64,000 nt of DNA from Nitrosopumilus sp. GTDB taxonomy: Archaea > Thermoproteota > Nitrososphaeria > Nitrososphaerales > Nitrosopumilaceae. Below are positions 5,380 to 55,610 of this stretch, piece by piece. The notes under the pieces were generated by a model. It was not told the origin of the DNA. It saw only the letters and a list, made by a program, of their open reading frames with translations, and did not search any database. Where the stretch lies: contig OZ241857.1 in assembly GCA_965203315.1 (NCBI GenBank), forward strand, positions 1,664,001 to 1,728,000, given 5' to 3'. Every line of letters begins with the position of its first letter. Position 1 is the first letter of the stretch. The position numbers were made by a program, and so were the translations under genes.

Positions 5380-5658
5380 TTAGGAGAACGAGTCTAGTAT
5401 TCTTGCTAGTTTTATGTCATTCTCTGTTATACCACCTGCATCATGCGTAGTCAGATCAATTACTAGTCTGTTGTATACGTTGAACCACTCTGGATGATGA
5501 TTCATCTTTTCTATCTCCATCGCAGCTCTTGTCATAAACCCAAAGGCTTGATTAAAACTGGAAAACTCGAACTCTTTGTGTAGTTTAGAGTTTACTAGTT
5601 GCCACCCATCCATCTCTTTTAGTGCATCTCTTATCTCATCGTCTGATAACTTGTTCAT
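5380..5658 (-). CDS. Pterin-4-alpha-carbinolamine dehydratase
   Basis: HHPEW.NVYN and [12 protein letters not shown] motifs. Confidence 0.95.
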
Positions 5659-6115
5659 CGTGTACAGTAATGCCGTGTTATTTTTAAACTATACAGTCAA
5701 GACTTGTTCAATTTGACCAGATCTGTCTGATGCATTGAGGATATGTTACAAATCTCTGATTGCGTAGGTTGTCAACTTTATTACGTGTGGTTCTGACATA
5801 TCCGTTCATAAAGTATTATGATGAGGGAATAAACCGCTAGCATAAAGCCGCGAGGTGACCACGTGAATCACGAGACTGGCACTGCCAGACAATAATGCAA
5901 TACTGGATGGATCATCCTTTATCTAGATCTTTAAAAACCGATTAAACCACATCTGATTCTATAGTCACGAACGGAATTGTTTTCCTGTTTACTCCCGCAT
6001 ATGTGGTGTAAGACGGAATTTACCTCTGGCAGAACAACTAACGCCAAATTGTAATACCACATACTAGGAAAATAATTATGTTCGCGACTATATAATGAGT
6101 TGTAAAACTCTGGGA

Positions 6116-6793
6116 TTATCTGATATACCTAAAGTTTAGATAATATCCACCTTGATGATTATGCTCAGACTTGCATTTCTGGCATATTGTCACAATATGC
6201 GCGATATACTCGTTTGAATCTTTGGTGAAATAGATGTACCAAAACTGTTTCTTGTATTGTATGTGATTTCCACACTCTGTACATTTTGCAGATCGACGTG
6301 AATCTTTGTCAAACTCAAACTTGTATGATCTTTCTATAGATTCAACTCCGAGCCATGGAGTTTCTAATTCCGATTTACATTTTGGACAATTCGCAATACG
6401 TAAAAATTCATATAATCCAAATATTTTGTGTGGAAGCTCAGATTCTGGATCAAACTTTTTTCCAGTCTTTACTCGAAGAAATTGATAGCTTAAAAATTCT
6501 TTATATGCATCACTCTGTACGTCAGAATGCGTTTTTATGTATTCTAGCAGATTCTCTATCATTACATGTGCACCTTTTGGTATGCTTTCTCTAAACTCTT
6601 CAAGTTTCATTTCAACATGGAACAAATGATCCGCTAGATCTGAAGAGCATGTATATGCTGACATTAGATGTTTTTCATTATCCTCATCTGTGTTAAAATA
6701 TATGCTCTTCTTCTGCTTCCATCGGAGTCTGCGATGATCTAGTTTTGCATCGCACTCGTGACAGATTAGATCAAACTCTTCGTCTCTCTTCAA
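6116..6793 (-). CDS. Cys-rich hypothetical protein (4 CxxC pairs), paralog 1 of 3
   Basis: Shares FDLICHEC, YEFL..A.CPKC.SELETPW, CxxC..I....QFWYIYFTKD and TICQKC with 6863..7531 and 8289..8966. Confidence 0.85.
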   Translation of the reverse strand: MKRDEEFDLICHECDAKLDHRRLRWKQKKSIYFNTDEDNEKHLMSAYTCSSDLADHLFHVEMKLEEFRESIPKGAHVMIENLLEYIKTHSDVQSDAYKEFLSYQFLRVKTGKKFDPESELPHKIFGLYEFLRIANCPKCKSELETPWLGVESIERSYKFEFDKDSRRSAKCTECGNHIQYKKQFWYIYFTKDSNEYIAHIVTICQKCKSEHNHQGGYYLNFRYIR

Positions 6794-6862
6794 TACTATG
6801 TGCTCTTGATCAATTTTTTATAAGTTTTTCATCATTCGGTGCTGTAATGTGGCATTGAGTTA

Positions 6863-7531
6863 TCATGCTATGTATCTAAAGTTTAGATTATATCCGCCTT
6901 CATGATGATGTTCATTATGACATCTCTTGCATATAGTTACAACATGTGATTCAAAATAGTCTTCGTCTTTAGTAAAATAGATGTACCAAAATTGCTCTCT
7001 ATATTTTATATAATTGTGACATTCAGAGCATTTTGAGATTCTTGGTTTCGGTACACCAAAAGAGTGTACTACCTCTTGTGATTCAGGACCTCTCCATGGC
7101 GTCTCTAACTCACTCTTGCATTTTGGACATTTTGATACATATAGAAATTCATAACTACCAAATATTTTGTTAGGTTGTTCTGACTCTCGATCAAAGTCCT
7201 TTCCAGTAGTTATGCGAAGAAAATCATTGCCTAGAAATTTCTCATAAACTTCGCTCTTTACATCCGAGTGTGTTGCCATGTACTTGAACATGTCGTCAGC
7301 CGTTATCTTTAAGCCGTTCCTTATATCGTCTATCAGTCTTGAAAACTGTAATTCACGTTCAAATAAACGATCTGTTATCTTCCTATCACATGTGGGGTTA
7401 GACACTGCGTATTTGTTATTATCATCTATCACCCCTCCAAATTCTGTGTATTTTTTCTGCCGCCATCTTAATTTTGTATGATCTAGTTTTGTGTTACACT
7501 CGTGACATATTATGTCGAATCTTTCACTCAC
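6863..7531 (-). CDS. Cys-rich hypothetical protein (4 CxxC pairs), paralog 2 of 3
   Basis: Same motif set: FDIICHEC, CPKCKSELETPW, CSEC, FWYIYFTKD, TICKRC, GGYNLNFRYI. Confidence 0.85.
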   Translation of the reverse strand: MSERFDIICHECNTKLDHTKLRWRQKKYTEFGGVIDDNNKYAVSNPTCDRKITDRLFERELQFSRLIDDIRNGLKITADDMFKYMATHSDVKSEVYEKFLGNDFLRITTGKDFDRESEQPNKIFGSYEFLYVSKCPKCKSELETPWRGPESQEVVHSFGVPKPRISKCSECHNYIKYREQFWYIYFTKDEDYFESHVVTICKRCHNEHHHEGGYNLNFRYIA

Positions 7532-7575
7532 ATCTTTTATGACTTGATGGTAGTTATAATAATGATTCTCTTGGC

Positions 7576-7693
7576 TGTTCTTTTCGGTTTGTGTGAGATA
7601 GAATGGTTATAGAAAAAGCACTGCAAGATTCTATAGGGGAAAATTATAGAAAAAGTCTTACGAAATATCATCTCACATAAATCGAAAAGATCC
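7576..7693 (+). mobile_element. MITE copy (degenerate left TIR)
   Basis: Aligns along its length with 36737..36851. Right end CGAAAAGATCC intact, left end TGTTCTTTTCGG; no TSD visible. Confidence 0.85.
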
Positions 7694-7759
7694 TTAGTGA
7701 TAGCAGTATAGATGTACTAGTATATATCAAGACGTCTTAGCGTGAATCAGACCATCTGA

Positions 7760-7843
7760 TAGGCGCGGTGGGATTTGAACCCACGATGGCCTTTGCTATT
7801 CATTGACGATGAATTCTGCTGGGCCAAGCTCTAGCACACGTCT
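7760..7843 (-). tRNA. Non-canonical tRNA-Leu-like RNA with GTC at the anticodon position (or pseudo-tRNA)
   Basis: 84 nt. Acceptor AGACGTG/CGCGCCT (one mismatch) plus A73; D-loop AG..GG; stem ATTCA/TGAAT with loop TCGTCAA; 13-nt variable arm AGCAAAGGCCATC; T-arm GTGGG-TTCAAAT-CCCAC. Confidence 0.7.
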
Positions 7844-8288
7844 AAACTTAAAATATAACATTATACTAATAACAATATTGACGATGAGTTGAGCCTTTGC
7901 TAACTCGTAGAGTTGGTTTCACATAGGAGCCATCTCTCATTTTTGATTGAAGAACTATACCATAAAAGAACGGAGTGCTTGTAATTCGAGTTGAATATTG
8001 ATGATTGTTATCTATGTGGAAATAAACTTGCGAGTAATCAAAAATTAATATGATTGTATGTATTAGTGCCTATTGGCTATAAGTTGCTCTAAAGCAATTT
8101 AGTAGAAGGTGTTCTGGACCCTTCTACGCTCTTTATTCTGCATGTGATGTACCAAAAAGATCGTCCATAGATCATAACCATTAACTTTGATCTCTCCCCG
8201 CACACACTATTTTTAGCGGTATATTTTTAAAATTTTTTAGAATGAACCATAATAAATATTCGTTGTATCTGTCGGTGTGTACTTGCAA

Positions 8289-8966
8289 CTATTCTATATA
8301 TCTGAGGCCCAAGTTGTAGTTACCTTTGTACTGGGTCTCTGATTGACATTTTTGGCATATTGTTGTAATGTTTGGTTTATACTCGTGAAATTCGTCTCTT
8401 GTAAAGTAAATATACCAAAACTGACTCGTGATTACTATTCTGCTATTACATGCTCTACATTTTATGAAAGAATCAGACTTTCTGTTTTTGCTGGACAGCT
8501 TTGATGCATTGATAGAGTCGGTACCGCGCCACGGAGTCTCTAGCCTTGTTTCACACTTTGGACAGTCTGCCATATGCAAAAACTCATAGTTTCCAAACAC
8601 AATATATGGGAGATCTGCTTCTGGATCACTCTTTCTTCTACTTGCTGGAGTGAGCGACTCTGCATTAGAAAATGATCTATATGCATTAGCACGTATGTCC
8701 TCATTTTGCATAATGTATAACAACATATCATAATCTGATGGTCTCTTGCCCTCTCTCATCTCTTTTTTGATCTTTTCTATCTCGACTTCTGTCTCCAATA
8801 AATGCTCTGTGACTTGTGGAGGTTCTGTAGATATTGAAAGTGCATGTCTCTTGTTATCTTCATTAGTGTCAAATTCTACACTCTTTATCTGTCTCCATTT
8901 GAGTTTACTGTGGTGTAGTTTTGATCCACATCCGTGACAGATTAGATCAAATTTCTCTACTCCCAT
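8289..8966 (-). CDS. Cys-rich hypothetical protein (4 CxxC pairs), paralog 3 of 3
   Basis: FDLICHGC, CPKCETRLETPW, CRAC, FWYIYFTRD, TICQKC; starts 55 bp after the helicase stop. Confidence 0.85.
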   Translation of the reverse strand: MGVEKFDLICHGCGSKLHHSKLKWRQIKSVEFDTNEDNKRHALSISTEPPQVTEHLLETEVEIEKIKKEMREGKRPSDYDMLLYIMQNEDIRANAYRSFSNAESLTPASRRKSDPEADLPYIVFGNYEFLHMADCPKCETRLETPWRGTDSINASKLSSKNRKSDSFIKCRACNSRIVITSQFWYIYFTRDEFHEYKPNITTICQKCQSETQYKGNYNLGLRYIE

Positions 8967-9021
8967 TATGATTGTGTTGAGTATAGTTTCTTTATATTTT
9001 GTTATGTGTTCAATTGACGCT

Positions 9022-12000
9022 TTACTGAAATTTGGTCAGCTTGCCACTCTCTTCTGGTTGTGTAATGAACATGGCTCCGATCAACTTTAGTTCTGCTCGT
9101 TGTATGTCTTCTTTGATCTTGATCGGTTCTGTCTTTTCTTGTAGTCCGATAAACTCACTCATCTTTTTGATACTGGATACTAGGCTATCAATATCTTGCG
9201 TTCTGTCATAATCTAGTAGATACTCTCTGATATCGTCTTGCCATGCTCTAACATACTCTGATTTTATGATGTTTGTGACCTCTCGACCATCATCTTTTGT
9301 TATGTGGCCATTGATTGTAGCATCTATTATGATCTTTTTTATCTTTGAGACATCCTTGTCGTACTGTTGTCTCTTTTTGCCCACGCTCTCCTTTACATAC
9401 TGGATAATCTGATCATTCTTTCTATCTATTGCATCTCTTGCTTTTCTGTCGATATCTAGCAACATCTCGAATGACTCTTGATTATTGGGTCCATCCATTG
9501 GAAGATACGTTGGAGTATCTACATTACAAGATATCATGTTTATGGCTTCAAAGTCATCATCAGGTACATATGCCTTGTCTCTCGTACGATCATACACAAC
9601 AAAGTAGACTCGTCTCTCTGGTCTCTCTTGCAGATATCCGAGTATTGCATATCGACCTCTCTCTTGTTTACCACTACGCCTACCCATGGGTACCTCTTCC
9701 ATCTTGTCTATTCCTTTTTCCTTTATGTATCGACTAAGCTCGTTTATCGGTGACACTGCAGGCATTATGTCAGATTCGCGTTCCATGTCTTCGATTACCT
9801 TTGATGTGCCCTCTTTACCTGCAAGAATCTTGATCCTCTCTTTTATGGTCCCATTGAATTGTTTTGGTGTAGGCGTTGTTCCCAATACTTCAGAGTCTAG
9901 ACCCACCGTTTCGTTTACAGTTCCAATCTTCTCTATCAACTTTCCCATGATCTTTAAAATATTGTCTAGCTCTTTGTCTGGATAGCAGGCTCTTGTGTGT
10001 ATTGTATCGTATTCGCTGGTGAGTCTATCTACTCTACCTGTACGTTGAACTATTCTCATTGGATTCCACGGTAAATCATAGTTTATCACATAGTTACAAT
10101 CTTGGAGATTCTGTCCTTCAGACAAGACCTCTGTTGATACTAGGATATCGATCTCTTTTTCATCTAATATTTGATCCTCTAGTAGATTTGCTTTTGGAGC
10201 AAACATTCGTATGTATTTTTTTCTGACTTCTTGTTTTGTACTTCCAGTTATACATTCTATTTTATAATTCACAAATTTGTCTTGTAGTTCTTTTGTAATG
10301 TATTTCGCTGTAGTAACATATTCTGTAAATATCAGTACCTTTCTACTCTCTGTCTCTAGTGCTTTCTCTCGAAGTATTCTTTTTATGACCTCTTCGATCT
10401 TTGTATCTACTGTAATACGCTTTACACTATCTAGTAACTCTTCTAGTATTACGAGATCTTGATCAATATCTGACTTTAGTCTCTCGATATCATATGATTT
10501 GTGTATATTTTCCTTCTCTATCTTGTTTATCTCTTGTATAAAGAATTGGGTCTTTTCTTGATCGTCTGGATCAATATCAGTATCACCTTGTTCAATATCA
10601 TTCCATTTTGTTATTATCCTGTTAAAGTCTCGAACTCGTAGTATCTTTCCTTCGTCTAGTATATCTTTGACTTGCTTGTACAACATGACCTTGTTCTCTA
10701 TGCTTGTTTTACACGCAACTACACTACTCTCAAATCGTTTCAAAAGTAGTATCACTTGGAGATGAGCTACTATGCGATGTCTATTTTTTTCATCTTCTGA
10801 TAGATTTGTATTGTATCGTTCTATTCCGTATGGCGCCATCGTTAATTTTCCGATCTTGTCTAGAATCTCTTCAAAGACGTTTCCATATAGCTCACTCAAG
10901 CTGTACTCTATTGCAGCATAGCTGTGTTTTGGAAACTTTATCTCTCTGCCGTTTATTGTATCATCTTGATATACATCTTTGATGTATGATCTAGTTCGTC
11001 GTACCATTACTGTATCTAAGAGCTGTTGAATCTTTGTCAGTCCTTGAGTCAGACCCTCTTTGTTTGCAGCATCGCGCATGTGTTTGTACAGATCTGGAAT
11101 GCCAATCGTCTTGTAAAAGTAAGTGTCTTCTCCTCCAGTGATGATTGAGAGTTGATAGTATAGGTCCATGAGTGAGTTGTTTATTGGCGTAGCTGAGAGT
11201 AGTACTGCTTGTTTCTTCTTTCCTACTGACATTAATTTCATGAGATTCTTTCTACGGTTTGCCGTCTTTGATCTAAAGTTTTGACTTTCGTCTATTAGTA
11301 CTAGATCTATGTTTCTATACTTGACGAGATCATCTAGTATGATATCTCGTCCAAGTGACTCCATTGTCAGTTTCTCTCTGATATTGATATCTACCTCTTT
11401 TAGTTTCTCTTCCCACATGCTGTGTAATACTTGTGCTGGGGCTATCAGTAAGACCTTTTTGCCTTCTTTGAGTACCTTTTGTCGTAGTATCTCAATGCCG
11501 ATATTTGTTTTGCCAAGACCTGTCGCATCTGCAATTATTGTACCGCCATGATCTGCTACTATGAATAGTCCGGTTCTTACTGCATCTTGCTGAAACTTTG
11601 TAAGTGTCTTGCTAGAAATATCTCTCTCGTCTACCTTTGTTAATAGTGGTTTGAATCTCTCAAATAATAGTTTCATGTATACTTGATGTGGATTTGGCGG
11701 TACTCCAAACTTTGATTCTTTGAGTACACTGATGAGATCTTGTTTGGTATCTTTGGATTGATCCCACATTCGATCAAACCACTCTCTTGTAGTCTTGCTG
11801 ATTCCTGGTTGATACAGTCCTGCATTCAGTTCATAGTTTCCTACCATTCCTGCTGCTGTAAAGTTGCTTGAGCCAACAAAGACTGCATTGTCTCCTAGAA
11901 TGTAGCACTTGGAGTGATTGAACCTTCTCGTACCTTGTCTGACTTGGACGTTCTGCCTCTCTAAGAGTTTGATGAGGCTAGATATATCATTCATGGACTT

Positions 12001-12306
12001 TTGATCTAGATCGGTATCTTCTAGACTTGCCTTGAGAGATATCGATTCCTTGTATTGTTTAGCATATTCTTCAAATGTCTTCTCTGACGGTACGATCGCC
12101 TCCTTACCTAGTAATAGTCGTATCTCGAATGAATCTCTCTCTATTGCAGATTCAAGATTCTCTCGTAGCATTCCATATCCCTGTACGTTGAAATAACCTG
12201 TAGAGATGTCTAGATATCCAGCACTTGGGATCTCTGAGTTGAGAATCATTTGCATTGTATGTGGTTCTGTGTTGTCGATGATATCTCGCTTGATGCGTTC
12301 AGTCAT
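9022..12306 (-). CDS. PLD-family nuclease fused to SNF2-type SF2 helicase (defence-associated)
   Basis: HSKCYILGD..FVGSSNFT (HxK PLD motif); DATGLGKT (Walker A), DESQ (Walker B), SATPINN, SEGQNLQ, NYDLPWNP and QRTGRVDR. Start overlaps the upstream stop (ATGA). Confidence 0.9.
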   Translation of the reverse strand: MTERIKRDIIDNTEPHTMQMILNSEIPSAGYLDISTGYFNVQGYGMLRENLESAIERDSFEIRLLLGKEAIVPSEKTFEEYAKQYKESISLKASLEDTDLDQKSMNDISSLIKLLERQNVQVRQGTRRFNHSKCYILGDNAVFVGSSNFTAAGMVGNYELNAGLYQPGISKTTREWFDRMWDQSKDTKQDLISVLKESKFGVPPNPHQVYMKLLFERFKPLLTKVDERDISSKTLTKFQQDAVRTGLFIVADHGGTIIADATGLGKTNIGIEILRQKVLKEGKKVLLIAPAQVLHSMWEEKLKEVDINIREKLTMESLGRDIILDDLVKYRNIDLVLIDESQNFRSKTANRRKNLMKLMSVGKKKQAVLLSATPINNSLMDLYYQLSIITGGEDTYFYKTIGIPDLYKHMRDAANKEGLTQGLTKIQQLLDTVMVRRTRSYIKDVYQDDTINGREIKFPKHSYAAIEYSLSELYGNVFEEILDKIGKLTMAPYGIERYNTNLSEDEKNRHRIVAHLQVILLLKRFESSVVACKTSIENKVMLYKQVKDILDEGKILRVRDFNRIITKWNDIEQGDTDIDPDDQEKTQFFIQEINKIEKENIHKSYDIERLKSDIDQDLVILEELLDSVKRITVDTKIEEVIKRILREKALETESRKVLIFTEYVTTAKYITKELQDKFVNYKIECITGSTKQEVRKKYIRMFAPKANLLEDQILDEKEIDILVSTEVLSEGQNLQDCNYVINYDLPWNPMRIVQRTGRVDRLTSEYDTIHTRACYPDKELDNILKIMGKLIEKIGTVNETVGLDSEVLGTTPTPKQFNGTIKERIKILAGKEGTSKVIEDMERESDIMPAVSPINELSRYIKEKGIDKMEEVPMGRRSGKQERGRYAILGYLQERPERRVYFVVYDRTRDKAYVPDDDFEAINMISCNVDTPTYLPMDGPNNQESFEMLLDIDRKARDAIDRKNDQIIQYVKESVGKKRQQYDKDVSKIKKIIIDATINGHITKDDGREVTNIIKSEYVRAWQDDIREYLLDYDRTQDIDSLVSSIKKMSEFIGLQEKTEPIKIKEDIQRAELKLIGAMFITQPEESGKLTKFQ

Positions 12307-15300
12307 TGTGATATCGCCTCATAATATTCTAGTGCAAGTGCAGCCATCTCACCATAGAACTCTTTAATGTTCTTGTTATCCCAAACAATATCTTGCATCT
12401 CGTACAGCTGTTGGTTTCTCTTGAATAGTGGAAATGTATCGATTATTGTCTTGTACTCCTGTACAGTTAAACAGTACGAGTGTGCAACTAGAGCATCTAG
12501 TTCAGCAGTGACCTCGATCTTTTCTGCTGGTGTTAGTTTCTTGTTTTCTATGTGAAATATCTCAGCAAACTCCTCAAACTCTGGTGTGCCAACTAGAAGT
12601 TTTGTTGCAAGTTCAGCAATTTGTCTATCATGAACTGATTTTGGTAAAGGTAATGTTGATACAATGCTAGCTAGATTTGTCTGGTTTTTTGAACGAGATA
12701 TAAAATCAAATGTTAATGAATTCAACACTCCACACAAATATGAAATTTTTCTATGATATTCTGAATCTAAAATAATCTTTTCGTATTTTTTTAGAATAAC
12801 AGAACGTAAAGAATTTGAATGAAATGTATTCTGAGATATAATGGTAGATATGCATGTACGCATATTTGTGGGACTTGTAATGTTGCGAAAAATTAGTCTG
12901 TACGAGTTATGAATCTCTTTACACTTACCTAAAAATGCTTTTACTCCATTTAGTCTATCTAATCCTTTCTTTTTGTTTGATGCGAATTGTGGCCTAGCCC
13001 ATTCTTGTGTATATTGATGTATGTTTTTACCTTCAAATACTAACCAGCCTTTCCCATCTTCTGACAAGAGATCGGAGTCGTTTGTTTTATGAAATTCACT
13101 TACAAGCTTAACCTGCCATCCGTCTTTTAGATTTGATAATGATAATTTTGTTTGTGATAACTTTTGAAATATATTTGATTGAGTACCTATTATTTCTGGT
13201 ATTGTATATTCTTCTGGAGATGTTTCTATAATTGTTTTCTTAGATAACGTACCGAATTTCTCTTGTTCTCTAGAATGGTCTTCTAGTGAGTCAAGGTAAT
13301 GTATATAAAACCCAGCTGGGAACTGTCCTGTCCTGTCCTGTCCTGTCCTGTCCTGTCCTGTCCTGTCCTGTCCTGTCCTGTCCTGTCCTGTCCTGTCCTG
13401 TCCTGTCCTGTCCTGTCCTGTCCTGTCCTGTCCTGTCCTGTCCTGTCCTGTCCTGTCCTGTCCTGTCCTGTCCTGTCCTGTCCTGTCCTGTCCTGTCCTG
13501 TCCTGTCCTGTCCTGTCCTGTCCTGTCCTGTCCTGTCCTGTCCTGTCCTGTCCTGTCCTGTCCTGTCCTGTCCTGTCCTGTCCTGTCCTGTCCTGTCCTG
13601 TCCTGTCCTGTCCTGTCCTGTCCTGTCCTGTCCTGTCCTGTCCTGTCCTGTCCTGTCCTGTATAGTTAATAACAAAAATCGATAACTTGAATGAATATTG
13701 AATATCTTTTTTCTATTTTCAAATACATACATTGAGATGATATCTCTTTCAAGTATGTACTTACGAAGATTTATGCCACCTGGGATGGTAAGGAGTTGTG
13801 CCGGAATTAATATTGAAACGATACCATTTTCTGTAGTGAGATATAACGTCCGTTCTAGTATGAGTTTCCATAAATCATTATCCCCTGTTCCTTGTAGTGA
13901 AAATATGTTATAAAACAATGATTTTTCTCTTATTTGTTTTTCATACAAGTCCCACAATCTTTTAATATTATGTTCTTTGAGAAGATCTTTTTTTCTCTCT
14001 TTCTTTTTGACATTCGGTTTTAGATCCTTAAATGTGGGATCAATTGGAGTAAAAAACTCGTCATCGCTAGGCTTTACTTTCTCCCAGGGGGGGTTGCCAA
14101 CTATGCAATCAAAGCCTCGTCTAGAGTCAGTAAATGCGTCATTGAACTCGAGCTCCCAATGAAAGAATCTGTGGCGCTCTGCTAGATCATTTACAATTTT
14201 TTGGGCCTTTGCAATATCATTTGACTTGTCATATATGCCAAACCGATGAATAAACTCTGACTTTGCTTTCTTTGGCAGAATCTTTGGTTCAATCTTTGAT
14301 GCGGTTAATGCATCTAGGACATTTCTGTTTGGTTCTATTGATTTGATGTATTCGTTATACTTGTCCTCACTCTCATGAACTTGCTGTATTGTCACATCTG
14401 AACTTGAGACAATATCGTGCATCATCTTTGTCGACTCATTGCTAAGAGTATAGTCATCTAGAGACGTATTCTGCTTATCATCCAGATCATCAAGAAACAT
14501 TCCTATCGTAGAGTCGCCTACTTTGAGATGATGATCCATATACGTCAGCGGAACACCAATTGCAAAGGAATCTAACCACAATGACAGCTTGGCTAGATCT
14601 ACTGCCATTGGATTTATGTCGACTCCAAATATGCACCGTTTCATTATTTTACGTTTGAGCAGTACATCTGGAGTTAGCAGATTCTCATCAATTGTAACTC
14701 CTTTCTTGTTCTGCTCTTCTAGTACTCTCTTTCTATCCCGTTCTATCTCATCTAGTAGAGGATGATCTGGATGTTTTTCTAACGTATCTGTGACCCATGA
14801 TGTGATTCTGTTTAATGCTTCAACTAGAAAGTGACCACTGCCCATTGCTGGGTCTAGTACCTGAATATCTAACAGTCTGTCCATACATATCTGTAGATTT
14901 TTTGCAGTCTTGTTCTTCTTGTATTGTTTGATATCTTTGTCAATCAACTCTTCACGTTCTGCAAAGATTGGACCCAGTCCCTGTTTTACCAAAAATTTTA
15001 CAATCTTTTCTGGTGTGTAATAACTTGCAGATGTCTTGCGTGATACAATTCCACTCTTTGATGCAAGATAGAGATCATTCTTTTTGTACGAATAGGTGGA
15101 CTCTTGCTTTGTCTTGACCTGTCGAACTCCTTTACTGTCTTCAAGTAATGCAATATCCTCTTTTGCTTGTTTTGGCTCGTACTCTAATAGTCGCTCAAAT
15201 ACACTGCCCAAATGCCTGACCGTTAAACCGGTATAGTCTAATGTCTCGCCATCTCGTTCTAATAGTCCACGTAGTGCACTCGCAATGAATCGATTTTGAA

Positions 15301-16594
15301 TGTGTAGTTCATCTCCAGCCTTACCTATCTTGAATAGATCCCCGTTATACTGTGGCAGATTGTGTTTTGGACTGCCCTTTCTAACTGCTGTAAATAATTC
15401 TAGTAACGCATCCCAACAATCTGTACCTTTTGGATTCTGTTCATACGAATCCAAGTGATTACGAATAGATTGTAGTGATATGGGCTTGTACTTTTCGTCC
15501 CTTGTAGGCAAAAGATTTTTGGCTTCAGCATATGCCAAAAACCAAACTCTATACATGATTCTCAGTGCAGACTGTTTTGCAACCGCTAGCTCGTCTGATC
15601 TGAATGTCTTTTTACCGTCATGATCCAGTACTCCTTTAATGATATCCAAGAATAGTCCTTTTGGACTCATTATCTTCTCTGCAAGATTCTCCTCCAGATC
15701 TCTCGAATGCTCTTTACTCTCCTCAAAGAATAACTCGATGTCTCTCTTTCCATCTATCTCTTCAAAGGTATTAGCACCAAACATAATTATCAGATATCGA
15801 GTTACTGATTCACGTGCATCATCGAGATTTATCTCAAAATAGTTTGTACTGGTCGCTGATATCTTGCTAGAGTACAAACGCCACCTCTTACCATTTGTTA
15901 GTATAGACCACTCTTTCTCAGAGAGAGACGAGACAGCTGTATAACTTGGTGTCACCTCATTGTCAGTCTTTCTTATGTTAAAGTCCTCTTGATCTGTTAT
16001 GGTTATTGCCACTTTGTCGTATGACTCTTTTGTCATATCCCAACCAAGTGCTTCTAGTATCTCTCTAACACTTGATCCAATCTTTTGTTTAACTTTGGGT
16101 AAGATATCATCTACATCTTGTCGTGTATCTTGAAAGATTCTGCTACGAAGATAATGTGTTGCAAATAGTCCGCGATTATCAAAGTCTCCAGTAGTATTTG
16201 GGATTGCATTAATTGATTGCTTTATTCCTATCTTTAGATCAAACTCGTCTGCAGCATCTGTAATTCCGTTGGATTTTAGTACACTTGCAATTCGTTCATA
16301 CTCGAATCTATTTTCTAATCTAGTTATGTGACTCTCTCCAGAAGACTTGAGAAACAGTGCTCCGAGTTCTTGTACAATTACTATACAGTCCTCAAAGTTA
16401 ATCAGTGCTTTCTTTACTTCTGATATCTTTTTTGGTCCATTATTGATCAGTATGATTGGAATCTCTTTGGTAGGATTGTCGTGATTCAAACTATAACACA
16501 ACCAGTCTTCTGCCAGTGGAATCTCTCGTTTTGCTATCAGATCTACTCCTATGGACTCTAGTAGAATCTGTTGTTCTGTATTCATAACGATCAC
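12303..16594 (-). pseudogene. Type IIG/Eco57I-like N6-adenine DNA methyltransferase, frameshifted at an internal pentanucleotide repeat (likely phase-variable, OFF allele)
   Basis: SYYTP, DPAMGSGHFL, GVDINPMAV, FHWELEF and GNPPW in ORF 13283..16594. A second frame is open from the repeat (QFPAGFYIH...SPEEYTIPE...) through ORF 12303..13067, the target-recognition-like C-terminus. Confidence 0.9.
13323..13661. repeat. Perfect microsatellite (CTGTC)67 + CTGT; (GACAG)n on the coding strand
   Basis: 339 bp uninterrupted 5-bp period inside the methyltransferase gene. Confidence 0.98.
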
Positions 16595-16711
16595 TTGTGT
16601 CTCCTAATCGATCCTCTCATATCTAATCTATTCATCATCTGGAATTACCACTTCTTGAAATTCATCACTTAGAATACTAAACAATCCAAGTCTTATAAGC
16701 ATCTGATCTCC

Positions 16712-17275
16712 TCAATACCATCCTGAGTATATCTCTCGCGTCCCTGTGATACTGCGTTGGCGAGGCTTTTTAAGTATGAACTCTCTTATTTTTAGATCCA
16801 TCTCTTTCGTGTTTCTAACATCCGAAATAGTTACTAGATTATTTGCTGACTCTATATTCTCTGATATCAAACGCTTAGTCTTTCTATGCAAGTTCATGCC
16901 CATATCCCTAATGTAGACTTCTAAATAGGCATCTGAAATACCATCTCTAACTGCAAAAGACTCATGTTCTTTTACCCACAAAAAATATCTCTGCGTTAGC
17001 AATGGTACCATCTCTATCTCTGGTTCTATACGCATATCTCGTGCCATCATGGCTATTCTCTCGATAAACGAGCCATGAAATTCATATAGCAGTCCTTCAT
17101 TCTCCCAGAATCTTACTGTATATCTTAGTCTATCTTCAGTTGCGTTGGCGTATCGGCGATCTACATACCTGCTCAATCTTTTAGCTATATCTTTGGACTT
17201 TTCTTTACGCAATTTAACATAACTGCAAACTTCAGCTCCTTCATGCTTGCATGACTTCATACTCGTTTTAATCAT
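16712..17275 (-). CDS. Hypothetical protein
   Basis: 187-aa ORF upstream of and co-oriented with the methyltransferase; no motif recognised. Confidence 0.6.
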   Translation of the reverse strand: MIKTSMKSCKHEGAEVCSYVKLRKEKSKDIAKRLSRYVDRRYANATEDRLRYTVRFWENEGLLYEFHGSFIERIAMMARDMRIEPEIEMVPLLTQRYFLWVKEHESFAVRDGISDAYLEVYIRDMGMNLHRKTKRLISENIESANNLVTISDVRNTKEMDLKIREFILKKPRQRSITGTREIYSGWY

Positions 17276-17434
17276 GGGTGCTTATTTATTAATATTCAAG
17301 AGATTTAGGTTTCCATAAATGGGGTGATATCTTGTATACTTGCCCAGATTTTATGGGATTACATTATGTCAAATCAAGATAACAAACACACTCAAAACTA
17401 TATTACAACGAGTCTGATATGATCTGCTAAAGAT

Positions 17435-18193
17435 ATGAGTGATGTACAACGACTATTGGCAGAAATTCAAACTGCAATAAGAGACACTGTACATACAAGA
17501 AAGATTGGAATTGCATTTTCTGGTGGTGTAGACAGTACATTATTGGCCAAGCTATGTGATGCAAACTATGATCCAACTTTACTGACCATAGGATTTGCAG
17601 AGTCTCATGATATGTTATTTGCAGCTCAGGTCGGCAAACTCTTAGAACTATCACATCATACACTAGAGATCGATCCTGATACATTTGGCAACATAGCATC
17701 TCACGTGTGTAAAAGAATACCACAGGATAATATTTCTTGGCAAGAGAACGGTATTGCATTTTATTATGTCTCAAAACTAGCAGCAAGTTTGGATCTTGAC
17801 GTGGTAATTACCGCAAACGGAATAGATGAACTCTTTTGTGGGTATAATGCTTATCTCCAAGCTTTTGATCTAGGCGAAGCTGCGATTCTAGAGATGATGG
17901 ATAATAAATTAACAAACGAGGTTGATATGATGAAGGCTATAGATACAGTTACATCAGAGTTTGGCGTCAAGCTGATACAACCACTACTTGGAGATCGATT
18001 TATAGAATTTGCAAAGACTCTTCCGATATACGACAAGATACAGAGCTCAGATGATCTATACAGGAAACATATTATTCGTAGATTGGCAAAAGAGGTAGGC
18101 GTTCCTGCCATGTCTTATACAAAGCGAAAGAAGGCATTACAATATGGAACAAAGATACACAAGAATCTATTAAAGTTTAAGAAAGCCTCTTGA
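17435..18193 (+). CDS. Asparagine synthase C-terminal-domain (PP-loop) protein
   Basis: AFSGGVDS PP-loop, G.DELFCGY and KKALQYGT motifs. Confidence 0.88.
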   Translation: MSDVQRLLAEIQTAIRDTVHTRKIGIAFSGGVDSTLLAKLCDANYDPTLLTIGFAESHDMLFAAQVGKLLELSHHTLEIDPDTFGNIASHVCKRIPQDNISWQENGIAFYYVSKLAASLDLDVVITANGIDELFCGYNAYLQAFDLGEAAILEMMDNKLTNEVDMMKAIDTVTSEFGVKLIQPLLGDRFIEFAKTLPIYDKIQSSDDLYRKHIIRRLAKEVGVPAMSYTKRKKALQYGTKIHKNLLKFKKAS

Positions 18194-27503: not shown

Positions 27504-27620
27504 AAATCTTTTCGATTTACGTGGGATATATTTTCACAAGGCTTTTTCCATAGTTTTCCATCACAGAATCTTGTAGTGTTTTCATGTAACAATCCTATCC
27601 AACGTAAACAGCAAAGATCC
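27504..27620 (-). mobile_element. MITE copy, left boundary of TA cassette
   Basis: Reverse complement GGATCTTTGCTG...CACGTAAATCGAAAAGATTT aligns with 36737..36851. Confidence 0.85.
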
Positions 27621-28844: not shown

Positions 28845-28961
28845 GGGATTATTCGGTTTACGTGGGACAGAATTTTTTACAGAAAAATTACTATGTGATC
28901 CTATAGTGAAAATTTAAAGACAGTCCTGTAAAATGTCATCCAACATAAACCAAAGAGATCA
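28845..28961 (+). mobile_element. MITE copy (degenerate), right boundary of TA cassette
   Basis: GGGATTATTCGGTTTACGTGGGA...AAATGTCATCCAACATAAACCAAAGAGATCA aligns with 36737..36851. Confidence 0.8.
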
Positions 28962-36736: not shown

Positions 36737-36851
36737 GGATCTTTTCGATTTGCGTGAGATGAATGATTACAGAAAAAGCACACAAGATTCTATAAGGGAA
36801 AATTAGAAAAAAGCCTTGCGAAATGTCATCCCACATAAGCCGAAAAGATCC
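36737..36851 (+). mobile_element. 115-bp MITE with intact TIRs and 8-bp target-site duplication
   Basis: TIRs GGATCTTTTCG / CGAAAAGATCC; TACAAGAT directly repeated at 36729-36736 and 36852-36859. Confidence 0.93.
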
Positions 36852-43890: not shown

Positions 43891-43984
43891 ACAATAATAA
43901 AAACACAACTATGCCATCGAAAATATCCATGTGAATTCTTTATAAAGGTTTTAGCGATTTTCAGTCTTTGGTCCATAGTTTACA

Positions 43985-44135
43985 CTAGGAATGTATTCCT
44001 CACGATCACAGGACTTCGGACATATATCCATTCGAGCCAGTTACGCTCAGTATCATCTTGGTCCTTTTATCAAAATCTGTCCATTTATTTTTCAGTGGCT
44101 CTCCCACAATATTCGACCGGACCGTTACGATTTTG
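43985..44135 (-). ncRNA. Candidate IS110 bridge/seek RNA region
   Basis: Four short inverted repeats directly 3' of the transposase stop: 44095-44107, 44034-44048, 44018-44029, 43987-44000. Confidence 0.5.
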
Positions 44136-44136
44136 A

Positions 44137-45249
44137 CTATGACACAACAAACTTTCTATCCTCTGCTAACACACAATATATCACTCGAAGTAATTTGGCA
44201 GCAGCTGCAACTGTTGCCTTGCTTGTACCGCGTTTCTTTGCAAGTTTATAGTAAAATCTAGAAATGTTTGTATCTGTATGTCTGACGTGTACATGTACTG
44301 CTTCAGTTAGAATCCATCTTAGCATACGACTACCACGTTTGGTTATATGACCATGAATCACTTTATCTGCAGAGTTTCGTACTGATGGAACTAGTCCTGC
44401 ATATGCGCATAGTTTATCTGATCCATGAAATCTTTTGATATCTCCTATCTCTGCCGCAATTACAAGTGCACTGTAATTGCCTATGCCTGGAATTGTTTTC
44501 AAGAGTGCTGCATATCTTGTTTTATCTACTTTGGTCGCTATTTTGATATCATCTTCAAGAATCTCTTTGTTACAAAATTCTATTGATCTCAGATAAGACT
44601 CTATACGATAGTCTCCAAGTTGTTGTAATTTCTTGATGTATTGCTTAGAAAATGGATTACCATCTATCTTTATCCCACTCTGTAGTATTATTCCATGTAT
44701 TAGATTCTTGTATCTTGTTCTATCTCTCACATATCTCTGTCTATGTCGTACCAGTTGTTTTGATTCAATAGTATCTAGATCCGATACATAACACTCTGGA
44801 ATGTAATTGAGTCTGAGTAGGTCTGCCAGTGTCCATGCATCTACCTTGTCTGTCTTTTTCTTTGATGCAGCTATCGCTCTAGTTTGGTATGGATTCGACA
44901 ACACTACATTAAATCCCAATTCATCTACCAAGTATCTAAACAGTCCATACCAGACTGACGATGACTCTAGAACACACTTTGTCTTGTCTCTAGAAAACTG
45001 TGCAAAGAACCTTTTGATACTGTCATGATCTGTAGCAACACGTTCATTGAGCAAACGCTTACCATCCTCATCAACTGCTGCAACCTGTAGAAACTTTTTG
45101 TGAGCGTCTATTCCAACGTATATCATCTTACTTTTACTTTTTTTCTGGGTAATCTGTTTGTTTGCATTTTTAGATCGATTTACAGGTGATCGCTTGGATC
45201 GACTTGCATGCTTGGTATCATCTGAATTTGCTTTGATCGATTTCTTCAC
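44137..45249 (-). CDS. IS110-family transposase/recombinase
   Basis: GID, LESS and KTDKVDA (DEDD RuvC-like), TIPGIG, AYAGLVPSVRNS and K.G...LR; no internal stop. Confidence 0.96.
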   Translation of the reverse strand: MKKSIKANSDDTKHASRSKRSPVNRSKNANKQITQKKSKSKMIYVGIDAHKKFLQVAAVDEDGKRLLNERVATDHDSIKRFFAQFSRDKTKCVLESSSVWYGLFRYLVDELGFNVVLSNPYQTRAIAASKKKTDKVDAWTLADLLRLNYIPECYVSDLDTIESKQLVRHRQRYVRDRTRYKNLIHGIILQSGIKIDGNPFSKQYIKKLQQLGDYRIESYLRSIEFCNKEILEDDIKIATKVDKTRYAALLKTIPGIGNYSALVIAAEIGDIKRFHGSDKLCAYAGLVPSVRNSADKVIHGHITKRGSRMLRWILTEAVHVHVRHTDTNISRFYYKLAKKRGTSKATVAAAAKLLRVIYCVLAEDRKFVVS

Positions 45250-45256
45250 ATATGTT

Positions 45257-45365
45257 TATTTTTGTGCCACGTGTGTGATTTGGACTATTACATTTATACG
45301 GAGTTTTAATATTTTTGTGCCACGTGTGTGATTTGGACTATTACATTTATACGGAGTTTTAATAT
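45257..45365. repeat. Perfect 53-bp tandem duplication upstream of the IS110 transposase
   Basis: ATTTTTGTGCCACGTGTGTGATTTGGACTATTACATTTATACGGAGTTTTAAT x2. Confidence 0.95.
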
Positions 45366-53014: not shown

Positions 53015-53131
53015 AATTCTTTTCAATTTACCCAGGATAGTATTCTAGAAGACTTTTTCTAAAAACGTTCCTATAAAGTCTGCTGGTACTTTTTCTGTTA
53101 AAATCCTATCTCACATAAATCGAAACGATCT
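53015..53131 (-). mobile_element. MITE copy (degenerate)
   Basis: Ends AATTCTTTTCAATTT...TCTCACATAAATCGAAACGATCT; internal sequence aligns in reverse with 7576..7693. Confidence 0.78.
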
Positions 53132-55434: not shown

Positions 55435-55557
55435 ACTATACAGATATCATATGTTCATTATTTATACCTACAATCTTTACATGACAAGGATATCAGATTT
55501 TTCCAAAACTGATTTTATCGTTTCAAGATAGAGGTGTTTGCATCACTTTGTTATATT

Positions 55558-55610
55558 GGATCTTTTCAGTTTACGCATGATGGTATTTTAGAAGACTCTT
55601 CTAAAAATAT
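55558..55610 (-). mobile_element. Truncated MITE half
   Basis: GGATCTTTTCAGTTTACGCATGATGGTATTTTAGAAGACTCTTCTAAAAA matches the first half of 53015..53131. Confidence 0.7.

Follow-up and report, generated by a model that had tools for sequence, protein, structure and literature searches.

What role, if any, could be played by a sequence that has the body of a leucine tRNA and the triplet of an aspartate tRNA? The question is raised by a locus in a 64,000-nucleotide stretch of Nitrosopumilus sp. DNA (contig OZ241857.1 of assembly GCA_965203315.1, positions 1,664,001 to 1,728,000), here called the window, whose own numbering is used for every position given without a contig or locus name. An earlier note had described the locus as a tRNA-Leu scaffold with an Asp (GTC) triplet. 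With high confidence, the sequence is identified here as a worn copy of a two-part, non-coding module that is derived from tRNA-Leu, specific to this strain and carried in islands. The other part of the module, a partner element bearing matched segments, is absent from the earlier note and changes the reading of the locus. The tRNA-like sequence and its anticodon arm are as follows.

7760-7843, minus strand: the focal tRNA-like sequence, derived from tRNA-Leu, 84 nucleotides (nt) long, with loop triplet GTC, C33, A73 and no encoded CCA.

7798-7814, minus strand: its anticodon arm, a 5-bp stem (7810-7814 with 7798-7802) and a 7-nt loop (7803-7809).

The minus strand of 7760-7843 reads as the earlier note had parsed it, and comparison with the genome's own tRNA-Leu genes confirmed that the body is Leu-like in sequence. 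The T arm matches exactly that of the true tRNA-Leu genes, the D loop and variable loop are similar to theirs, position 73 is A, and the long variable region (13 nt, of which about 2 bp can pair) has a loop ending in AG, as in four true tRNA-Leu genes. A73 and a long variable arm are the identity elements of archaeal leucyl-tRNA synthetase (LeuRS). ARAGORN predicts a tRNA at 7758-7844 on the minus strand with anticodon gtc, i.e. Asp/GTC, and the Rfam model RF00005 matches 7760-7843 on the same strand with 31.9 bits, above the gathering score of 29 (E 0.0095 over the window), the lowest score among the 46 matches above the cut-off in the whole 2.47-Mb genome. The feature is real and beyond chance expectation, yet it is a weak, marginal match to a tRNA. 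One acceptor-stem pair and two D-stem pairs are non-standard in the Infernal alignment, in agreement with the A3-C70 and A12-C23 mismatches reported before, and the tally for all stems of this copy is one G·U, two A·C and one other mismatch. All pairs of the 5-bp anticodon stem are formed; the 7-nt loop that it closes has C33 where U33 is usual, and its triplet, GTC, is not a leucine anticodon.

With the focal region as query, three further tRNA-like relatives were first found in the genome, and a profile built from four units (nhmmer) recovered 10 copies of a partner element of about 105 nt. Six of these are followed directly by an 83-85-nt tRNA-like sequence and constitute the units designated focal, L002, c243b, L003 (on contig C5), c610 and L004. 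The other four (c1658, c243a, c382 and the one at 8039-8139 in the window) are solo, and no tRNA-like sequence without a partner element was found in the genome by the profile search. The partner elements are of two types, A and B, both with two hairpins. Those near the focal sequence, together with the motif that trails it, are listed below.

7844-7948, no strand assigned: partner element of type B, from the profile search and folds; hairpin 1 pairs 7909-7916 with 7930-7937, and hairpin 2 pairs 7886-7890 with 7902-7906.

8039-8139, minus strand: second partner element, of type A, solo, with no tRNA-like sequence after it; from the profile search.

7730-7751, minus strand: trailer motif 3' of the focal tRNA-like sequence, common to it and the type-A unit on contig C5.

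The trailers of the focal and C5 units have an exact 11-mer and an 8-nt palindrome in common. The C5 unit is the best candidate for a working member of the family: its tRNA-like sequence scores 48.1 bits against RF00005, has a perfect acceptor stem and is the only copy with an encoded CCA. At the other extreme, L002 has lost part of the T arm, and c610 and c243b are degraded. The loop triplets found across the copies are GTC, GCC, ATC and TCC, and position 33 is A or C in five of the six. Permissive scans of 7500-8300 and of the C5 locus assigned the partner element to no Rfam family on either strand, the best other match being to a small nucleolar RNA (snoRNA) model with E 2.8, and RNAalifold gave no consensus for the ten partner elements, types A and B being misaligned in hairpin 1.

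The evidence that joins the two parts into one module consists of two segments of the tRNA-like sequence that are found again in the partner element.

7802-7815, minus strand: segment B of the tRNA-like sequence (5' strand of the anticodon stem plus loop), with its copy at 7877-7890 (14 nt, 93%, offset 75).

7789-7798, minus strand: segment A of the tRNA-like sequence (end of the 3' strand of the anticodon stem plus variable loop), with its copy at 7893-7902 (10/10, offset 104).

Both are direct matches that recur at constant offsets in the focal, L003 and L004 units (72-75 for B, 101-104 for A); in L002 the B match is clear at the threshold of the script and the A match is weaker (10 nt, 90%, offset 100), below the threshold of the offset scan. 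The order of the segments is swapped, A then B in the partner and B then A in the tRNA-like sequence. In the partner, segment A supplies the 5' strand and loop of hairpin 2, and segment B its 3' strand and the unpaired stretch beyond. The partners of the four better-kept units hold unit-specific copies of the two segments of their own tRNA-like sequence, which is the best match of the partner in four of six units, both exceptions being degraded copies. In the control, which used 44 other tRNA hits, 43 did not exceed 10/12 identities with the 150 nt upstream of each, compared with 11-12 for the four units. A third copy of the matched segments elsewhere in the genome was found only in the related solo element c382, the scattered remainder being indistinguishable from chance.

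The bases on the loop side are the most variable part of the tRNA-like sequence and of the partner alike. Between the focal unit and its nearest kin, L002, the partners are 71% identical and the loop-side bases differ identically in the tRNA-like sequence and in the partner copy; an adjacent, type-specific C/T difference between the partner copy and the tRNA-like copy is retained in all three type-B units. Since the neighbouring element repeats the loops and varies in step with them, these matched, co-varying loops are taken to mean recognition, not decoding.

The fold of the tRNA-like sequences was assessed in an alignment of all six, with 21 pairs. Standard pairs occupy 78.2% of cells, against 36-40% when the pairing partners are slid; nine of the 21 pairs are altered on both sides, and the 15 double-change cells were equalled in none of 500 shuffles. 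Compensatory changes are found in all four helices, and pairing in the anticodon stem reaches 90% and includes three compensatory pairs, so that the claim that a rewritten anticodon stem had been kept paired is upheld by the paralogs. In the C5 copy, 20 of the 21 pairs are Watson-Crick. From this covariation, the tally of 11 G·U to 12 A·C over the stems of all copies and the near-perfect pairing on C5, it is concluded that the family was formerly under structural selection, that the C5 copy still looks intact and that the focal copy is wearing out. The focal copy has begun to decay, as indicated by its two A·C mismatches, C33 for U33 and the missing CCA, and both of its segment matches are still present.

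Such wear could also mean that the units are functionless debris, i.e. old tRNA-Leu-like duplicates with a partial tandem duplication, decaying in accessory DNA, whose matches are kept only by short-tract gene conversion or by recent origin. This explanation draws on the presence of just two of the six tRNA-like sequences on the RF00005 list, the missing part of the T arm in L002, the degraded state of c610 and c243b, the equal frequency of G·U and A·C in the stems, and the restriction of the family to a single genome among those searched. BLAST searches did not find the unit in 150 genomes of the same genus (five candidates scored per genome), which gave 11 matches in 9 genomes, all to the T arm only, nor did they find units in 40 relatives, where only T-arm matches and two AT-rich matches were obtained. 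A degenerate type-A pattern had no match in viral_contigs, genome_contigs or metagenome_contigs; this pattern is strict, missing even the solo copy in the window, and its failure is weak evidence. The earlier note had counted a lack of conserved homologs, combined with no expression, among the outcomes that would refute its reading: the result is mixed, in that the other genomes searched gave no homologs and five paralogs within this genome show compensatory, non-random change. Decay without function is made rather improbable by those compensatory changes in all four helices, by the parallel change of matched segments between units that are about 30% diverged, by the adjacent type-specific difference between the two copies, which has not been homogenised, and by the C5 copy, flawless with 20 of 21 pairs Watson-Crick and its CCA encoded.

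Decoding by the focal sequence is very unlikely because of its C33 and because the loop differs in every copy, and the sequence is neither the cell's tRNA-Asp nor a required tRNA-Leu. It has the GTC triplet of a tRNA-Asp without the class I body, its variable region being long and its T arm of Leu type. The possibility, raised in advance, that it would prove to be the ordinary tRNA-Asp of the genome is disposed of by a canonical tRNA-Asp(GTC) gene with encoded CCA at C1:845138-845212 and by further GTC tRNAs at C1:718538-718609 (66.5 bits) and C1:1406350-1406421 (39.9 bits). The latter two resemble each other and not the canonical gene, and may be foreign tRNAs. Genes for tRNA-Leu with anticodons CAA, TAG, GAG and CAG are found at other places in this genome, as is a tRNA-Leu(TAA) candidate at C1:~1039044-1039200 (locus L044) that has an intron after the anticodon loop and was overlooked by both tRNA finders; given this intron-bearing candidate, the idea that the look-alikes stand in for a missing tRNA-Leu(TAA) was rejected. 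A second intron in the candidate gene is probable further 5' (C1:~1038873-1038900), and a partial copy of its own T arm and 3' end is found about 180 nt downstream, in the manner of a short attachment-site (att) repeat.

A tRNA that is charged with leucine and acts alone, with no role for a partner, has to be considered nevertheless, whether as a reader of Asp codons as Leu, an amino-acid donor or a decoy for toxins. A73 and the variable loop ending in AG have been kept, the neighbours are defence genes, and natural dual-identity tRNAs exist, e.g. tRNA-ProX of Streptomyces, which, in the sections of the report used here (PMC11415595), likewise combines the body identity of one amino acid with the triplet of another. 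Compared with tRNA-ProX as portrayed in those sections, the present family differs in having C or A at position 33 in five of six copies, a triplet that is not conserved, and decay in most copies. The C33 of the focal copy and the A33 or C33 of most of the family, the acceptor and D-stem mismatches, the lack of an encoded CCA and a triplet that varies among GTC, GCC, ATC and TCC all speak against a solitary tRNA; no tRNA-dependent transferase was found among the neighbours scanned, and the matched partner would be left unexplained. This explanation is considered highly improbable.

The reading preferred here, tentatively and as a serious possibility that falls somewhat short of probable, is that of a two-part non-coding module in which the loops would be matched address segments for RNA-RNA pairing with a divergently transcribed partner RNA. 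The anticodon and variable loops would serve as two exposed address segments instead of codon readers, and the partner would bear both segments, one in the loop of hairpin 2 and one in the adjoining single-stranded stretch. Transcribed from the strand opposite the tRNA-like sequence, the partner RNA would complement the anticodon loop with a free 5' tail and the variable loop with a hairpin loop, and would recognise only its own tRNA-like sequence. The candidate partner transcript of the focal unit would be read from the plus strand, at about 7876-7946, and end in a run of five T. Cis-linked antisense RNAs and their targets meet via exposed loops in this way, as in plasmid copy-control RNAs and type I toxin-antitoxin RNAs. 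The predicted pair resembles them in its free tail and hairpin loop complementary to two exposed loops, in being copy-specific and in residing on accessory DNA; it differs in that the two genes are separate, without overlap, the order of the complementary patches is swapped, a tRNA-like RNA takes the place of an mRNA or primer as target, and both RNAs are predicted ones.

The evidence on the strand of the partner leans weakly to the one opposite the tRNA-like sequence. In hairpin 2, 48 of 60 cells are Watson-Crick and 12 are not; nine of the 12 are A·C on the tRNA-like strand and hence G·U on the other, one is the reverse, and two are artefacts of column choice. The opposite strand folds better in six of ten partner cores (summed -156.3 vs -134.7 kcal/mol) and has the better z-score in four of six copies. 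Its predicted fold has, in every copy, a free 5' stretch of 8-13 nt, then hairpin 2, then hairpin 1, and is followed in all three type-B copies by a run of 4-6 U; in these predicted folds, the free stretch complements the anticodon loop and the loop of hairpin 2 complements the variable loop. The conserved block of the four solo partners stops within about 11 nt of where a tRNA-like sequence would start, which is to be expected if the partner block is a gene of its own starting there.

Several observations weigh against pairing between two RNAs. The nine-to-one ratio in hairpin 2 reduces to about 4-5 independent events versus one; L002 and the best-kept copy (two of six) fold better on the tRNA-like strand; and T runs are available on both strands. 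A promoter matrix from 40 tRNA upstream regions was too diffuse to set a start on either strand. Co-fold and duplex energies were noisy and poor in cognate specificity, the cognate partner being by co-fold energy the best for just one of the six tRNA-like sequences and the second-best for four. Four of the six tRNA-like sequences fail E <= 1 for RF00005, leaving only L003 and the focal copy on its list, and with G·U and A·C at 11 and 12 in the stems, recent change there looks neutral; the focal copy itself has two A·C mismatches. Finally, the RNA-pair model offers no simple origin for the swapped segment order, and the exchange of modules with a break in the anticodon arm, described below, is better explained by DNA recombination.

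The last of these points is the main support for a different explanation, in which the matched segments are DNA recombination sites and the units are att-like junctions of the elements that build islands. On this view, core-type sites would be formed by the anticodon stem-loop, where inverted-repeat arms enclose a spacer of 7 bp, and by hairpin 2 of the partner, where those arms enclose a second spacer; a site-specific recombinase can join such sites only if their spacers are identical, and the tRNA-like sequence would combine a 5' part from the element with a 3' part from the target. Discordance between modules is consistent with this: L003 and c610 share 82% identity in the partner, 96% in nt 1-26 of the tRNA-like sequence and only 57% in its last 37 nt, placing the break in the anticodon arm, while the focal and L003 units, which have different partner types, are 62% identical in the partner, 58% in the 5' part, 76% in the 3' part and 66% in the trailer, with the exact 11-mer in common. 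Sequence comparison of these modules supports DNA exchange with a break near the loop. The units also lie in islands beside defence genes, the island of the focal unit being delimited as follows.

5659-17434, no strand assigned: accessory island of about 11.8 kb that holds the focal unit, from its gene content and comparison with relatives.

It is flanked by a pterin dehydratase gene that ends at 5658 and an asparagine-synthase-like gene that starts at 17435. In all four same-genus genomes examined, the same two genes are 64-1490 nt apart with no tRNA between them, and the suggestion that the focal sequence is the relic of a chromosomal tRNA used as an integration site is thereby left without support. 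Short att sites and tRNA targets are usual for the integrated elements of thaumarchaea according to the text consulted of PMC6563490, and partial tRNA genes arise through integration, according to that of van der Gulik et al. 2023 (PMC9897764). Integration-derived tRNA genes, as far as these two sources describe them in the parts used, share with the focal sequence a low score, a location in accessory DNA, an odd isotype call and a part-tRNA repeat nearby, and here the tRNA-like sequence also behaves as a chimera that breaks in the anticodon arm. Unlike those partial genes, it is full length; its repeats are of 10-14 nt, in swapped order and 72-104 nt apart, with no element or integrase between or beside them; no chromosomal tRNA has the same sequence; and the corresponding site in relatives is empty and has no tRNA. 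The focal sequence is not a partial copy of a complete tRNA at the boundary of an integrase element. The only two PF00589 matches in the genome are distant (C1:412469 and C1:1468056), the spacing of the repeats leaves no room for an element between them, in solo partners the break is at the 5' end of the tRNA-like sequence and not at the matched sites, the profile search found no displaced tRNA-like halves elsewhere in the genome, and each partner copy amounts to just a half-site with respect to the other spacer. Recombination sites of this kind are judged unlikely, though far from negligible, as the meaning of the matched segments.

Mobile DNA enters in another way through IS110/IS1111-type insertion sequences (IS), of which the partner element could be a guide RNA (bridge or seek RNA), its matched segments specifying the tRNA-like target or the donor end, or a module moved by an IS110-family transposase. 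The genome has 14 matches to PF01548, the IS110 transposase domain, and nine near-identical copies of one IS family of 1.3-1.4 kb. Two of the ten partners, those of L002 and L003, lie downstream of such an IS and on its strand, at distances of 313 and 351 nt; two adjacencies of this kind are unlikely to arise by chance according to a rough calculation that assumes an even spread of IS, an assumption violated by clusters of mobile DNA. The two main-family copies concerned, L005:3343-4437 and L006:3317-4453, precede two different unit types, and the IS-unit spacers are unlike. The trailer 11-mer of the focal and L003 units is otherwise found only in the 3' non-coding part of the nine IS copies, where it is inverted.

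Co-variation of guide loops with flanking DNA is a hallmark of seek RNAs in the text available of PMC11187229, and the small RNA (sRNA) module ssr9 both rides with the IS110 element ISPpu9 and stands alone in that of PMC12288879. The partner resembles what is described there in being a short structured non-coding element with variable segments that match, and co-vary with, nearby DNA, and, as with ISPpu9-ssr9, copies occur both linked to IS110 elements and alone, in a host genome rich in this IS family. The differences from these systems, as given in the same partial texts, are that a single DNA strand carries both matches, where seek RNAs have a segment for each strand (PMC11187229), that the units are outside the IS ends, that similarity to the IS was not found, and that the matched sites are inside the tRNA-like fold, some 30-55 nt in and not at a junction. 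The partner is not encoded within an IS next to a DEDD transposase, no transposase adjoins the focal unit, and there is no pair of guides, one per strand, around an insertion point. No IS110 gene was found among the open reading frames (ORFs) checked within about 5 kb of the other eight partner elements. In comparisons of the left part of the unit with the IS ends, blastn-short gave no match to the IS and a single 26-nt match in flanking DNA outside it, and the z-score was at most 3.0, the best scores being reached by 6-22 of 300 shuffles, which is not significant. A guide or hitchhiker of IS110 type is accordingly held to be distinctly improbable. Neither reverse transcriptase (PF00078) nor Y1 transposase (PF01797) was found in the genome, which speaks against an interpretation of either retro-element or IS200/IS605 type. 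The window also contains, at ~43924-45227 (minus strand), an IS110-family element that has diverged from the main family to about 70% identity and is adjoined by a perfect 53-nt tandem duplication at 45257-45362.

Other ways of generating a tRNA-like sequence with a nearby repeat, namely a C/D-box guide, bulge-helix-bulge splicing, a permuted tRNA and tandem duplication of a 5' half, were considered by eye and rejected; no boxes or bulges were seen, and none of them explains both matches.

If the preferred pairing of two RNAs is accepted, a possible further step, itself very improbable, is that the units are RNA-only addiction modules, similar to toxin-antitoxin systems, of mobile defence islands. 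The toxin would be the look-alike, charged by LeuRS whatever its anticodon and turned by its Asp- or Gly-type triplet into a mistranslating tRNA; the antitoxin would be the divergent partner RNA, masking the anticodon loop and variable arm of its own tRNA-like sequence; and the fast-changing matched loops would keep each pair private. Such modules would explain why the tRNA-like sequence never occurs without a partner (6/6) while partners are sometimes alone (4/10), and why Leu identity features are kept while the loop varies. They would also explain the surroundings of a second unusual gene, a tRNA-Phe(GAA)-like gene of 86 nt at C1:1424343-1424428 (L043:6044-6129), which scores 60.7 bits and combines a normal anticodon loop and G73 with a variable arm that is long and palindromic. 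A 12/12 copy of this variable arm is found 83 nt upstream, within a hairpin, in a region that the profile search did not class as a type-B partner; the copy suggests that foreign tRNA-like genes in this genome more widely have their variable arm repeated upstream. The normal tRNA-Phe is present at C1:1784347, and the tRNA-Phe(GAA)-like gene is absent from 150 congeners. It adjoins a methyltransferase gene and a PDC-S37/Hhe-like helicase-nuclease gene, and has downstream of it a repeat of a family also found beside the focal unit (see below).

Predicted tRNAs with the wrong anticodon are usually filed as pseudogenes or as recoding tRNAs, and the focal sequence fits neither category cleanly. Were RNA-RNA recognition true, the units would be a case of archaeal mobile DNA that carries an RNA of tRNA shape and a partner RNA private to it, and possibly a new kind of addiction or control module; were recognition at the level of DNA true, they would show how the defence islands of these archaea come to be assembled at tRNA-like sites with private spacers. 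For annotation, the lesson is that a mistranslating tRNA should be called only after a check for paralogs and local repeats.

The island around the focal unit encodes an HKD+Snf2 (DrmD-like) helicase, a split Type IIG/DrmMI-like methyltransferase and three zinc-ribbon-like ORFs, and contains a miniature inverted-repeat transposable element (MITE) in addition to the unit and the solo partner. The other units adjoin MmeI-type and Type ISP enzymes, toxin-antitoxin genes and IS elements. A 2.6-kb Type ISP restriction-modification stretch exists in two copies with 96% identity, at L006 ~5405-8040 by unit L003 and at L010 5655-8256 by c243b; the two are in opposite orientation relative to the unit, and the C5 copy is apparently broken into short ORFs.

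The three zinc-ribbon-like ORFs (6116-6793, 6863-7531 and 8289-8966, all on the minus strand) are paralogs of about 225 aa with several CxxC pairs and 38-52% mutual identity, two of them on one side of the focal unit and one on the other. They belong to no Pfam or PADLOC family, and about five distant paralogs are encoded elsewhere in the genome. A link between these ORFs and the units was rejected, their paralogs not being near other units.

The MITE-like repeat lies just 3' of the trailer.

7575-7693, no strand assigned: MITE-like repeat of 119 nt with terminal inverted repeats of about 26 nt.

Depth in a DNA run is raised over this copy, as expected for a repeat. Further copies of the family (~119 nt) are found in the window at 27506-27582, 28905-28960, 36737-36851, 53018-53130 and 55557-55582, and the same MITE-type end follows the solo partner c243a and is also present about 140 nt 3' of the tRNA-Phe-like gene at C1:1424343.

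Within the 3' end of the Type IIG/DrmMI-like methyltransferase ORF (13283-16594, minus strand) there is a perfect (CTGTC) repeat of 67.8 units at 13323-13661, just before a separate specificity-domain ORF (12303-13067, minus strand). Because the 5-nt unit shifts the reading frame, the repeat looks like a phase-variable switch that joins and splits the methyltransferase.

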